DNA from: Eledone cirrhosa
Lineage: Eukaryota
Direction of reading: 5' to 3'
Length of the DNA: 64,000 bases
Assembly (NCBI GenBank): GCA_964016885.1
Contig: OZ024757.1
Location: 12,276,001-12,340,000 of the forward strand
This document shows positions 700-57,345 of the stretch, in pieces (within the stretch, counting starts at the first letter, position 1; each line of letters begins with the position of its first letter). Below the pieces are notes generated by a model, which saw only the letters and a program-made list of their open reading frames with translations, did no database searches and had not been told where the DNA came from. The translations under genes were made by a program, and so were the position numbers.

Positions 700-958
700 A
701 TGTATGTATACTCCATATTCTTCTGAGCTTTTGGCTTGTATTGGCCGATAGTGCTTCTTATAGCTTTACTTGCTCTGACGAGTCCTTAATAGGACGAAAC
801 ATTGTTGGCTAATAAAGACTTTTGATGTATTGAAGGATTCTTTGGTTTATTTTCATAATTCTTCGGCTCTGTTTAATTACATTGAGCTATACCTTTACTG
901 GCATTTCTATAATACGAAGAGGGTGTTTAACTCCAATACACTCTAGTATTTTAATTCT
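700..958 (+). mobile_element. Solo PLE 3' end (pseudo-LTR/tail) ending in (TA)n
   Basis: Hammerhead core, AATAAA, bulged hairpin (865-888) and tail are colinear with the element at 10400-10642 (-). 5' boundary approximate. Confidence 0.7.
771..810 (+). ncRNA. Type I minimal hammerhead ribozyme
   Basis: gct-CTGACGA-GTCC ttaata GGAC-GAAAC-att-GTT-ggc, followed by AATAAA. Stem I weakened relative to the copy at 10548-10592. Confidence 0.75.
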
Positions 959-1012
959 TATATATATATATATATATATATATATATATATATATATATA
1001 TATATATATATA
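959..1012. repeat. (TA)n microsatellite
   Basis: Direct read. Confidence 0.98.
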
Positions 1013-1151
1013 TTAGAAAGTGAGGGTTTTTTTACAAATTGAAAAATAACCGAGGTGTCCTACACGAGTGAAAGCATAAAGAAAAAGAGATGAAATCGAA
1101 AATGAAACTGGAGTCTTATTTTTTTTTTTAAATATATATATTTATTTGATT

Positions 1152-1189
1152 CCTTTACCGGTTTCGCAGTTCTTCTGCTTTTCAAAAGG
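1152..1189 (-). ncRNA. Variant hammerhead (U3-A8 core), mirror copy
   Basis: Reverse complement of 1262-1299. Confidence 0.7.
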
Positions 1190-1261
1190 TGAGTTGAGAT
1201 GGAGGGTCTGTGGTTTTTCTCACAGATGTGAGAAAAACCACACACCCTCCATCTCAACTCA

Positions 1262-1299
1262 CCTTTTGAAAAGCAGAAGAACTGCGAAACCGGTAAAGG
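1262..1299 (+). ncRNA. Variant hammerhead (U3-A8 core)
   Basis: CCTT-TTGAAAA-GCAG aagaa CTGC-GAAAC-CG-GTA-AAGG. Palindromic ACCGGT stem III, AATAAA at 1305-1310. Confidence 0.75.
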
Positions 1300-52360: not shown

Positions 52361-53094
52361 AATATGGTTTTATAAATATAGTTTTCCATTTATTTAATAT
52401 TGTATATATATATATATATATATATATATATATATATAAATGAAAGGTATAGAAAACATTGTAGTAAAAAGCCAACAGTATTCCATAATATATAAGTGAC
52501 TATAGAGTCAACATGGGAAAATAGTTAACGTAAGCTGTGGGAAAAATAATTCAAACTCATCTCAAAGAGAATCAGGATATAGATTCCTCCACAGAATTTA
52601 GTGAAATCCAGGGAAGAATCAATAAAGCCTTAACTCATGATAAAATAAAGTTTAAAATACTCACCGTTTGATTTGCAAAAACTTCAAATGCTCTGTATAG
52701 TCTTAAAGACGATTTCACATATATATGTGTATGTATTTATCTATGCATATATATATATATATATATGTATTTATGTATGCATGTATGAATATATAAAATA
52801 TATATATATATATATATATATATGTATGTATTTATCTATGCATGTATGTATATATAAAATATATATATATATATATATGTATTTATCTATGCATGTATGT
52901 ATACATATATATATATATGTATGTATTTATCTATACGTGTATGTATATATATATATATACATATATATATATATATTTATTTATCTATACATGTATGTAT
53001 ATATAAAATATTGTCATGTTTACAAAAATATTTTTCTAATATCGTGTTTAATATTTTATATTGTCGTCTGCTTCTCTTCTCACGTGGTTACTTA

Positions 53095-53752
53095 CTCTCT
53101 CATTCTCTCTCTCTTCCCCTCTCACACAGCCTCTTCTTTCTCTTTCTTTCCCCTCTCACACAGCTTCTTCTTTCTCTCTCTTTTTGCCAGTGCCTTCTCT
53201 CACACAGCCTTCTCTCTCTCTCTCTTTCCACTCTCACACAGCCTTCTCTCTCTCTCTCTTTCCACTCTCACACAGAATTCTCTCTCTCTCTCTCTCTCTA
53301 TCTATCTATCTCTATCTCTCTCTCTCTCTTTCCCCTCTCACACAGTCTTCTCTCTCTCTCTTTTTCTTTCTTTCCCCTCTCACACAGCCTTCTCTCTCTC
53401 TTTCTCTTTCTCTTTCTTTCCCCTCTCACACAGCCTTCTCTCTCTCTCTCTATCTCTCTTTCTTTCCCCTCTCACACAGCCTTCTCTCTCTCTCTCTCTC
53501 TCTTTCCCCTCTCACACAGCCTTCTCTCTCTCTCTCTCTCTTTCCCCTCTCACACAGCCTTCTCTCTCTCTCTCTCTTTCTTTCCCCTCTCACACAGCCT
53601 TCTCTCTCTCTCTCTCTCTTTCTTTCCCCTCTCACACAGCATTCTCTCTCTCTCTCTCTCTCTCTATCTCTATCTTTTCCTCAAATACAACCTTCTCTCT
53701 CTCTTTCTTTCACCTCTCACACAGCCTTCTCTCTCTATCTATCTATCTCTCT
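53095..53752 (+). repeat. Pyrimidine-rich minisatellite TTTCCCCTCTCACACAGCCT(TC)n
   Basis: Direct read. Confidence 0.93.
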
Positions 53753-54769
53753 CTGGAGATTTTTTAACACAAAGTCACACAAGGATTAGAAAAATGGTGA
53801 TAATCACTGTGAAGTAACAATTATGCAATAAATAGTTGTTATTGCCACGTCTCGCATCCTCCTTTGGCAATGTGCAAAATGTTAGCGAGATCGAGTGAAC
53901 AATACACAAGTTATAATACTTTAGAGACGGGACTTATATAGTAGATGTAGCAAAATGTGTAGATTACGATTCTTGAGACGAGATTAAAATATACGATTAT
54001 GGGATATTTTAAGAAGACGAGTACATGTTTGACTAGATTTAGCTGCTTTTTCTAGCATTTTTAGTTATACTTTGAAGCAAATTTTATTTGTTACTATTAT
54101 ATTAAAAGTTATCTGGTTACGTTATTTGACTGGTATTTCTAGCATTTTACAAGGACCACGTGTGATTTTTATTTGAGGAAGATATAGTTGTTATTTCTGA
54201 TATTTACTTCCTCAAGTTAGTTGCTATTTCCTGCATCCTCTTGAAGACAAGGAATAATAATGAATTAGCTGCTGTTTCTAGTAGGTTCTATGGTAGTGAT
54301 GAGCGTGGGAGGGAGGTTTGACTGCTATTTTTAGCAGGTTCTAAGGCATTGAGGTTTATGTTTTACGAGAGATTTGGCTGTTATAATGGTGAGAGAGTAT
54401 AAGATATACAGAGAGAGGGAGTATAAGATATAGAGAGAGGGGGAAACCGCCGATGTTTACGTTGAGAAAACCTAATAAAATGTTATAAATGTGTTTATAA
54501 AGAACAGAATGAGATAAACAAGACAAAGTAAGATAAAATAAAGCAGCTGTAAGGATATTATACGATATATTTATAATATTTTAATATATTTTCCCTGGTC
54601 GTCTGCTGCCATTGATTGAGAGAGGAGTGGTGGGAGGTAGCCATAACAACTGTGGTAGCAGCACTGAGGTTTGTTTTTAAAGAAGTGAATACAAGAAAAA
54701 CAAGCAACAAATTTAATTGACTAAAATTAGTTTAAACCTCTAAATCTTAAGAATATTAAATCTCTTAAG

Positions 54770-56697
54770 TCCTTAAGATGTGTATGACGAGAAAGAAGAC
54801 GTTTTTGAGTCGTATGACATAGATGATAACTGGAATTTCTTACTTGACAACTTACTGCAGGCTACTGAAGAAACTTGTGGCTGGAGCAGAGCTCCAACCA
54901 GACAGAGAGTGACCTGGTGGTGGAACAGCACAGTAGATAAGCCATTAGAGACAAAAGACTAGCATGGAAGGCTTGGAAAAATGGTGGGAGTAGAGACCGA
55001 TACACAGCTGCTAAGAAAGAAGCTAGACGTCAGGTGTACTTAGCACGCACGGAGGCTGAGAGTAGGAGGTTTGCCAATGTTCTGTGAGGGGAAGATCAGA
55101 GGCGTGCGGTGTTCCACATTGCAAGGCAGTGTGTCAGTGTAAATCAGGATGTTGTTGGAGATAAGTGTGTCCGGAATGATGCCAGTGTACTTAGTGTTAC
55201 GACTTATCAAAAATAGGAGGCCTGGAAATGTCATTATGAGAGGCTGATGAATGTGGAGAATGAATGGGAGAGAGGGAAACTATCCCCAGTAGACCCGACA
55301 GAGGGACCAGCTATTGAGATTGGCGAATATAGTGTACAAGAGGCAATTAAAGAAATGAAGAATGGTTAGGCAGCTGGACCATCCGGGATAGTTGCTGAGA
55401 TGCTGAAGCCATCAGAAGTAGGCACTAAACTGGTTGCACACATCATATGGTGGTGTCATACCCAAAGCCTGTTGCAGCAGTATTCTCATAAATTGGTACA
55501 AAGGTAAAGGGGATGCTCTGGAGAGGAGCAATTATATGGGCATAAAGCTGATGGATCAGGTTATGAAAGTGGCAGAGAGAATATTAGCACATCAGTTGTG
55601 CTAATAGAGAAAGGGTCAAATTAGATGAGATGCAGTTTGGTTTTGTGCCTCAGAAATGTACAAAAGATGCCCTCTTCTTAGTGAGACAATTATAAGACAG
55701 GCTCTTAGAGAAGAATAAGCCACTATACTTAGCTTTTGTTGACCTAGAGAAGGCCTTTGATAGGGTACCTCGTGCTGTCATCTGGTGGTCCCTAAGGAAA
55801 CAAGGTGTAGAGGAATGGCTTGTGAGGACAGTGCAAGCTATGTTCAGGGATGCTATCAGTAAATTGAGAGTAGCAATGGGGTCTAGTGAGGAGTTCCGGA
55901 TACAAGTAGGTGTACATCAGTGTTTGGTCCATAGCCCATTCTTGTTCATTATAGTCCTCCAAGCCATAACAGAGGAGTTTAAGACTTGATACCCATGGGA
56001 ACTTCTCTATGCTGAATCTGGTTCTTATAGCAGAATCAGTAGAGGAGCTAGAGAATAAATTCTGGCTATGGAAACAGCAGTTGGAACAAGAGGACTGAGA
56101 GTGAACATAGAGGAACTGAGAGGACAATACTCTGATTCCATCAGGGAAATGGCCATGTTCGATATGCAGAAAAGGAACTGGCATAAATGCTATAAAATGT
56201 ACGTAATGCAGATCTTAGGTACACAAGAGATGTAGCGGGATAGCAGGCAAACTAACAGATAGGGAGAAATATGTATGCAGTACATATACAGGGAAATTAG
56301 ACAGTAGAAGTCGAATTGATAGACACATTTTTCCAATGCATGTGGCTCTATAGAAGTGGTTGATAGCTTCCGGTACCTAGGTGATCAGATTAGCATGGGA
56401 GGAGAGTGTTCCGAGGCCATAGTATCTAGAATAAGGACGGGTTGGAAGAAGTTTAGGGAGCTGCTTCCTCTGTTGACAAAGAAGGGTTTCTCCCTGCGTA
56501 CGAAAGGCCGGTTATATGATGCCTGTGTGAGATGTGCAATGCTGCATGGTAGTGAGACATGGGCAGCAACTACAGAGGAATTACCTACAGAGGGCTGTGA
56601 CAAGTGGAGAGATGCTGTGCTGAATAGGACCCCACCCCCTTGCAAGCAGAGAAAAGTGCACGTAAAATAATGATGATGATGATGATGATGATGATGA
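54770..56697 (+). mobile_element. Decayed RTE LINE with internal deletion and (ATG)n tail
   Basis: TWWWN, KGKGD, FVDLEKAFD, FRYLGD, MLHGSETW remnants. 3' tail shared with the SINE. Confidence 0.85.
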
Positions 56698-57259
56698 ACA
56701 TAAGCATAACAAAAGTCTATAAAAGCTAGTGCATGGATCAAATATAAATTTAAGAATGTAAAAATAAATTTTCAAAGTATATTTTTAATATATTTATAAT
56801 AAAAAGTTCAACTACATCTTTCAGTCTTAAGTATATAGATAATCTGTTATACTTCAAATGTAATAATTGTTTCTACATTTGGCACAAGGCCAGCAATTAC
56901 CCCAGTGCATTACTGGTACTTTATTTTATCGAACCCGTAAGGATGAAAGGCAAATTTTTCCTCGGCATGATTTCAACTCAAACAGTAAAGGGCCGTAACT
57001 CCATGCTGCAAAGCATGGTGTCCAACCCTCTACCAATCCACTGCCCTAGTCAAGGTGTAATAATAACAATAATAATATTAGGGCTAATGATTATACAACT
57101 AGAGAATTATTTTTAAAATTATTAATAATAATTTTACAATAATATATTACCAAATACAATAAAATAATTTATCAATGTAGAGTAAAAAGCTGAATATTAT
57201 TAAAATTTATAAAAAAATTAATACAAAAAATGTTATCAAAAAATGTTATTAGTAAATTA

Positions 57260-57345
57260 TATTTCAGCTCTGTATTATATTTGTTGTTTTACATTGAGCT
57301 ATTGTCATACTTGTAATTGGATAATATTTAATATTACCCACATTA
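57260..57345 (+). mobile_element. PLE-type tail remnant
   Basis: AGCTC-TGTA...TACA-TT-GAGCT (57266-57300) plus a second hairpin, then TA repeat. Confidence 0.5.

Follow-up and report, generated by a model that had tools for sequence, protein, structure and literature searches.

Paired bulged hairpins adjoin the two alternative ends of Hydra-clade Penelope-like elements

In the Hydra-clade Penelope-like elements (PLEs) found in a 64,000-nt stretch of Eledone cirrhosa DNA (GenBank assembly GCA_964016885.1, contig OZ024757.1, positions 12,276,001 to 12,340,000 of the forward strand; hereafter the window) and in their relatives, two bulged hairpins lie in the 5' untranslated region (UTR), and each marks one of two alternative element ends. 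The window is part of a 3-Gb, AT-rich animal genome and is crowded with 5'-truncated copies of GIY-YIG PLEs, many of them head-to-head pairs ending in (TA)n. A sequence-only reading of the window had noticed a hairpin with a 2-nt bulge and placed it in the 3' tails of PLE ends. The hairpin is not confined to the tail; it is the first (hp1) of the two UTR hairpins, the second being termed hp2. It is a real and apparently undescribed RNA element of a known kind, a stem-loop that anchors a reverse transcriptase (RT), in a new, paired use.

This arrangement is evident from the positions of element ends in a 1.664-Mb sample of the source genome, comprising 160 stretches of 10 kb plus the window, and in an outside set of 89 Hydra-like loci, reduced to 71 clusters, from metagenome and genome-bin contigs of other assemblies. 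In read-through copies from the source genome, hp1 and hp2 precede the open reading frame (ORF) in 10 of 11 references. In full-length elements both hairpins lie 30-270 nt upstream of the start codon, spaced 55-169 nt apart (55-83 nt in the outside set). A first tally of 184 ends, scored at distances of 0-12 nt, assigned 79 to the position before hp1 and 58 to that before hp2, with 4 read-through ends and 43 elsewhere. A second tally of 215 ends from 12 references, in which family I was excluded, families H and F were added and the windows were widened slightly to 0-14 and 0-18 nt, placed 98 ends before hp1, 98 before hp2 and 14 elsewhere, with 5 read-through (196 of 215 hairpin-adjacent). Because the 3' ends stop just upstream of hp1 or hp2, the length of the tail equals the spacing between the hairpins. 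Hairpin-adjacent ends run into TA repeats in 129 of 137 cases, as for Hydra-clade insertion.

The two kinds of end are combined by a strict rule. Of 65 candidate head-to-head insertions, 2 were passed over and one end could not be assigned in 9; the remaining 54 pairs join one hp1 end to one hp2 end in 53 cases, where 50% would be expected (p=3e-15), and 52 of these 53 were confirmed as inverted repeats. In the outside set, 38 loci had both copies, with 10 at a contig edge and 7 read-through, and 15 of 21 informative ends (five read by eye) stop 0-6 nt before a hairpin. For families H and C, hp2 was predicted from the tail ends and then found, with 331 and 131 read-through matches, respectively; among the 100 matches listed per family, nearly all carry a family-specific hairpin, 6 nt past the tail end in H and 8 nt in C. 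A Hydra ORF follows in 8 of 10 family H loci. Likewise, read-through copies of family E (L008, L012, L020) show hp2 6 nt past the tail end and then the Hydra ORF, and hp2 and the ORF start are seen at a family B locus (L190). Upstream of the hairpin, UA occurs at -6 in 30 of 60 cases and at -8 in 19 of 60, and TATA or ATAT is found upstream in 35 of 60 versus downstream in 3 of 60.

The hairpin also emerges from tails collected blind to it. From 349 inverted repeats, 132 have one end flush to (TA)n, and 100 of these (36 families) were kept, in which (TA)n is met 25-300 nt beyond the other end. No more than 22 nt separates the repeat end from the start of the motif in 61 of the 100 copies and 18 of the 36 families (modal offset 7-8 nt), compared with 5.8 copies and 5.1 families over 200 shuffles (maxima 13 and 11), 7-21 copies for other bulge sizes or sides, and 11 and 15 for antisense. 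Loose matches in tail families 3 and 29, which have a non-U bulge and account for 8 of the 61 copies, were discounted, leaving 53 copies and 16 families. In a motif-first scan, (TA)n lies 30-140 nt downstream of 139 of 335 matches against a background of 16%, and the bulge begins with U in 119 of those 139 versus 80 of the other 196. For the 37 outside clusters with an ORF start and at least 140 nt upstream, at least one hairpin is present in 30 and at least two in 14 (shuffles, 7.7 and 0.95); with a 1-bp upper stem allowed, 35 have one and 24 have two (antisense, 8 and 0).

Within the window, all ten hairpin strings of the sequence-only reading exist at, or at most 1 nt from, the coordinates it gave, and eight belong to one motif (Table 1). 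They do not represent ten independent families, 865/10472 and 14266/40567 being related pairs. A strict descriptor matches nine window sites, seven of them among the ten, versus 1.05 +/- 1.02 in 40 local dinucleotide shuffles (maximum 3). A covariance model built from 34 hairpins, all from other assemblies, returned 15 window matches, the top eight of which are cited sites (E 0.005-1.9, values that are rough for so short a model). In the case of copy 24310, local folding favours another register. The covariance model did not pick up the site at 9911, which shows a mismatch inside the stem in all 13 of its family copies seen; it is called a variant because its family, F, nevertheless has a canonical second hairpin. 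The site at 1049 was rejected: family G has no GAG arm, and the motif occurs in none of nine tailed copies. Descriptor matches at 28876, which is not at a PLE end, and at 19568, which sits in a long interspersed nuclear element (LINE) endonuclease ORF away from PLE ends, were judged chance. Over the hairpins in the window Rfam gave no match at E<=1; matches elsewhere were simple-repeat microRNA artefacts, plus two weak hammerheads.

The structure was assessed on 63 outside sites chosen on sequence only, without requiring upper pairs. The first three upper pairs are Watson-Crick in 55, 35 and 36 of the 63, compared with 32.1, 17.5 and 15.5 on permutation (maxima 44, 31 and 28 in 5000 permutations), whereas with 1- and 3-nt bulge registers covariation falls to chance level. 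Covariation had been claimed for the upper stem and the outer pair; that of the upper stem is upheld and that of the outer pair mostly is not (51 of 63 paired versus 49.8 by permutation), G-C/A-U swaps being seen between families of the source genome. On an RT tree of 27 proteins, built without named Hydra references and excluding 8 clusters without an hp1 call and 2 without a usable protein, the first upper pair switches between C-G and U-A about six times, three to five of these being forced by well-supported branches. CUC/GAG is near-invariant, as had been described, but the bulge is not a free NN: its first base is U in 61 of 63 sites (59 of 61 in a separate count), and the base just 5' of it is A or G in 63 of 63, with exceptions in the source genome in family F and tail family 12. 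The A-U second stem pair is fixed by selecting for CUC/GAG, yet it is also in the top core (15 families) when unconstrained. A model-fitted alignment, with 99.2% paired and double changes in 5 of 7 pairs, leans towards structure, the permutation set being cleaner. Loop length is indeed free: inserts of 48-110 nt lie in the loops at L049, L063, L073, L086 and L148 with the bulge motif kept, and the loop is a free insertion site. In tail family 7, a single C-G pair of hp2 (L281:1462-1485) closes a UUCG loop. UUCG loops are stable in RNA.

The elements that carry the hairpin are assigned to the Hydra clade by their proteins. Window ORFs B and C possess a CxCx5C linker but no CCHH finger, the combination by which this clade is defined in PMC8557442, and ORFs A and D have Cx4CxxC, by eye of Neptune/Nematis type. 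An RT and, C-terminally, a GIY-YIG endonuclease are recognisable in the translations (ORF B has 658 relatives), and Pfam barely detects these proteins (GIY-YIG in the family C ORF at E=0.044, below the cut-off). N-terminal RWK and DKT motifs occur in 38 full-length relatives, and read-through copies of families E, H, I and B match this N-terminus, the window ORFs being 5'-truncated. The source genome also holds Hydra reading frames of 713 aa. Arginines are near-invariant in the RxRWK and RxRxxIWFNPP segments. One Hydra protein (P0023) is predicted to have a fold nearest to telomerase RT (pLDDT 92). The motif had been taken as general to PLEs; as judged from sequence, it is a feature of Hydra-clade PLEs and not of PLEs at large, being absent from all 15 Neptune/Nematis-type tails (family A) and from the family G tails. 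Published consensi were judged by eye in parts of the supplement of PMC8557442: Hydra-2_Amil (coral) and Hydra-2_Ajap (sea cucumber) have the hairpin at their 3' ends, and Hydra-1_Ajap (sea cucumber) has two copies of it at its 5' end. In the Naiad and Chlamys consensi there, a downstream 8-mer signature has 11 matches among 15, none in such hairpins. No relative was found on viral contigs. Hydra PLEs also occur on contigs of bacterial genome bins (L269-L279), probably mis-binned animal host DNA.

A hammerhead core was found for families E and B and precedes hp1 in 27 outside clusters, in which the hairpin lies 37-69 nt past the GAAA. The constant reference point for the hairpin is the end of the element, at 0-12 nt, and not the hammerhead. 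For families C, H and F no canonical core was found near the hairpin. In family G (window 1163-1192, minus strand), a hammerhead whose core is of the U3-A8 variant described in PMC4209133 can be discerned by eye; the tail hairpin of this family, which differs from the motif, is common to tail family 16.

Family F is an abundant 567-nt tandem unit that has no ORF and keeps both hairpins. It lies at 9818-10343 in the window and at L359 (minus strand, 1136-1703), L352, L358 and L189; its longest sense frame is 43 aa and has no match to 120 Hydra proteins. It is likely a non-autonomous Hydra partner. Being short, tandemly arranged, devoid of an ORF and akin to PLE ends, it resembles the non-LTR retrozymes (PMC7229834; bioRxiv 10.64898/2026.07.22.740005). 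Those have a type I hammerhead per unit, whereas family F retains two hairpins and has no canonical hammerhead core by pattern and no Rfam hammerhead at E<=10 in three loci.

That the hairpin serves the PLE protein as a cis-element is well supported, at the level of sequence, by its position, its covariation and its retention in ORF-less family F. The shared RNA recognition element proposed for the PLE RT-endonuclease survives as a cis-element, narrowed to the Hydra clade, doubled, and linked to the element ends. Each hairpin probably tethers the RT-endonuclease to the RNA and likely fixes the point, a few bases upstream, at which reverse transcription begins. A transcript that reads through a tandem unit would supply both hairpins downstream of the copied part. 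The endonuclease would cut both strands of (TA)n, and each nicked 3' end would pair with the UA box 6-8 nt upstream of one hairpin and prime. Such programmed twin priming would probably involve two copies of the protein bound to a single RNA. The strict mixing of the ends suggests that both sites of a single RNA are occupied, since with two independent RNAs like ends would be expected in half of the pairs. The cDNA begun at hp2 would copy hp1 and the spacer, which would become the tail, and the two cDNAs would join head to head. A copy would need downstream hairpins to move again, which would favour tandem units. The bulge U is predicted to form a U.A-U triple and to take an arginine, as in TAR/7SK, the conserved RxRWK and RxRxxIWFNPP segments being candidate donors.

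In its full form, the proposal is that two TAR-type arginine-sandwich hairpins on one RNA keep a pair of RT-endonuclease molecules in place to prime the two strands of a (TA)n break at set positions, producing the inverted repeat and one-sided tail in one event; that the hairpin pair alone is enough for insertion of any RNA in trans; and that other PLE clades do likewise with different hairpin pairs. This is advanced tentatively, as a possibility with slightly more against it than for it.

In L1 twin priming the second start is opportunistic, whereas both Hydra starts would be set by the repeated hairpins and the two copies overlap, so that an inverted repeat with a single tail results. In the model of Ostertag and Kazazian (PMC2246262), the likeness is that both sides of the break prime on one RNA, with an inverted product. 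In the anole Poseidon PLE, reverse transcription begins at two sites inside the RNA, which coincide with the genomic ends and have the tail between them; RNA 3' of the start is needed, both target strands are cut and extended, and a dimer is predicted (PMC11167929). All of these features save the dimer prediction are shared with the Hydra proposal. Unlike in Hydra, the accessible account defines no recognition structure, and the starts lie in an AC-rich stem loop. The arginine sandwich of HIV TAR and 7SK (PMC6189040) likewise has a purine, the bulge U and then G-C, A-U and G-C pairs, the counterparts being A22, U23, G26, A27-U38 and G28-C37. In TAR/7SK, however, the loop closes the opposite side of the bulge, the Hydra partner would be a retroelement RT, and family F and tail family 12 have a pyrimidine before the bulge. 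Hepadnavirus epsilon (PMC3346311) shares the order of a lower stem, a bulge, an upper stem and a loop, recruits an RT and defines the start of synthesis, but it templates protein priming at its bulge, whereas the inferred Hydra start is outside the hairpin, DNA-primed and served by two hairpins. Hydra ends, at 0-12 nt upstream of the hairpin and not in the bulge, do not fit epsilon-type bulge-templated priming.

Several observations weigh against the reading of two RNA hairpins that each set an end. Family I has two end classes and no recognisable hp2, with 29 of its 42 ends elsewhere; TA microhomology with the target blurs end distances; and hp2 upper stems are often 1-2 bp. The near-invariance of CUC/GAG leaves the lower stem without covariation support and readable as plain sequence. 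As to the functional strand, 13 G.U steps were counted against 7 A.C steps, and folding energy is lower for the antisense strand at 45 of 77 sites and for the sense strand at 25. Of the six published Hydra consensi, two (Hydra-1_Amil and Hydra-1_Crog) show the hairpin weakly or not clearly, and in one (Hydra-1_Obim) there is none. Other PLE clades have one-sided tails without the motif (families A and G; PMC8557442), which means that tails in general do not depend on it. Lastly, the anole Poseidon start is not homologous to the cut DNA, unlike the proposed UA box, and the printed template shows, by eye, no bulged hairpin (PMC11167929).

Four other explanations were considered. The hairpins might act in DNA, where the GIY-YIG domain would read them in single-stranded cDNA or tandem DNA and cut the upstream UA/TA box, the ends being resolution cuts. 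Endonuclease-mediated resolution has been proposed to make the tail (PMC8557442), the tail of Drosophila Penelope is reported to be required for endonuclease recognition of plasmid DNA (PMC11167929), the upstream TA box resembles the (TA)n target and the strand test is neutral; yet in vitro RT starts of a sister clade on an RNA template match its two genomic ends (PMC11167929), the invariant U-first bulge with a 5' purine fits a known RNA motif and one hp2 is closed by a C-UUCG-G loop, and DNA resolution is regarded as unlikely. A template of antisense RNA, as argued in PMC3846280, on which the hairpins would stop the RT just before them like a telomerase template boundary, would suit the slightly more stable antisense folds and the predicted resemblance of the Hydra fold to telomerase RT. 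That model is very improbable: the 3' ends are fixed and the 5' ends variable, as for starts and not stops, tailed copies must read through hp1, the strict hp1 and hp2 pairing is left without explanation, and the hammerheads and ORF share their orientation with the U-bulge strand.

The location of the hairpins upstream of the start codon and the TA-rich sequence before them would also be compatible with sites for translational control or host factors in the 5' UTR, which ends would adjoin only through AT-rich annealing to (TA)n. Little credence is given to this, as the UTRs are AT-rich throughout and yet the ends concentrate in two narrow windows, the pairs are almost always mixed, and family F keeps both hairpins with no ORF to control. 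Chance folding in a few related repeats can practically be dismissed; the window does hold related pairs, and loose descriptors match 5 of 36 shuffled families, but the outside set and the permutation tests contradict it, as do the tail test, the hp2 predictions for families H and C and the pairing of ends. The preferred reading is that of two RNA hairpins bound by the RT-endonuclease, at the strengths given above.

Table 1. Hairpins and associated PLE features in the window
Feature	Position	Strand	Remarks
hp1, family E (Hydra)	866..887	+	67 nt past hammerhead core; tail to about 959
Hammerhead core, family E	775..799	+	weak Rfam HH9 match 759-829
Family G tail hairpin, not motif	1049..1069	-	GAG arm absent in the family
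Variant hp1, family F	9911..9935	-	inverted repeat 9940-10343; tail to about 9818
hp1, diverged family E copy	10473..10494	-	80% identity; hammerhead core 10560-10587
hp1, family C (Hydra)	14266..14299	+	just beyond inverted repeat 11246-14249; tail to 14424
hp1, family H (Hydra)	24310..24333	+	8 nt beyond inverted repeat (arms 22090-22700, 23667-24300); tail to about 24381
hp1, family I (Hydra)	25208..25226	+	includes one G.U pair
Hydra ORF, family C, 5'-truncated	38013..39059	+	CxCx5C linker, C-terminal GIY-YIG
hp1, second family C copy	40567..40600	+	1510 nt downstream of its ORF
hp1, family B (Hydra)	45765..45784	-	in tail of head-to-head insertion 45697-52410
Hammerhead core, family B tailed arm	45850..45891	-	mirror copy 52303-52344 (+) on short arm
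Hydra RT-endonuclease ORF, family B short arm	49248..50789	+	inverted copy 47400-49197 (-)
Short end, family B insertion	52303..52410	+	halts before hp1, enters (TA)n
Family J hairpin	57267..57299	+	no linked ORF found; clade from motif alone

Some further features of these families and of the window may be recorded. In family I (L291, L298; window 25100-25270), the second end class lies about 55-67 nt past hp1, and a plain 4-bp, bulge-free hairpin follows where hp2 would be. Exact tandem arrays of family H, whose period is about 3.53-3.54 kb, are found at G000:C1:437200340-437210983 and C1:91476593-91487270. Family A (window 14941-14996, minus strand), of Neptune/Nematis type, has a 55-nt one-sided tail; its start is, by eye, similar to the AC-rich region in which copying of the anole Poseidon template begins (PMC11167929). 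The family is young, because its copies are 96-99% identical in protein. Long intron-less ORFs of 780 and 656 aa lie at 31283-33625 and 33775-35745 on the plus strand, the former with a faint NHL-repeat match, and are possibly beta-propeller genes. A LINE at 18164-21537 has its AP endonuclease on the minus and its RT on the plus strand, an internally inverted copy. A tRNA-related repeat at 24401-24732 and 62985-63302 (Rfam tRNA match 63236-63293), which adjoins the family H tail, is probably a short interspersed nuclear element.

No description of the hairpin or of the end-pairing rule was found in the searchable literature, a scope that leaves out subscription papers, Repbase/Dfam notes and figures; the RNA fold in Fig. 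S2C of PMC11167929 and bioRxiv supplements could bear on this claim. How PLE proteins recognise their RNA, and why the insertions are inverted repeats with a one-sided tail, are open questions according to PMC8557442 and PMC11167929, and an element of 20-30 nt with a rule for both ends bears on both. Because PLE RTs and telomerase RT are sister groups, the mode of binding also bears on the origins of telomerase. For annotation, the motif marks the boundaries of Hydra elements and of their non-autonomous partners, and it suggests that RT-mediated insertion at (TA)n could be given a short handle made of RNA.

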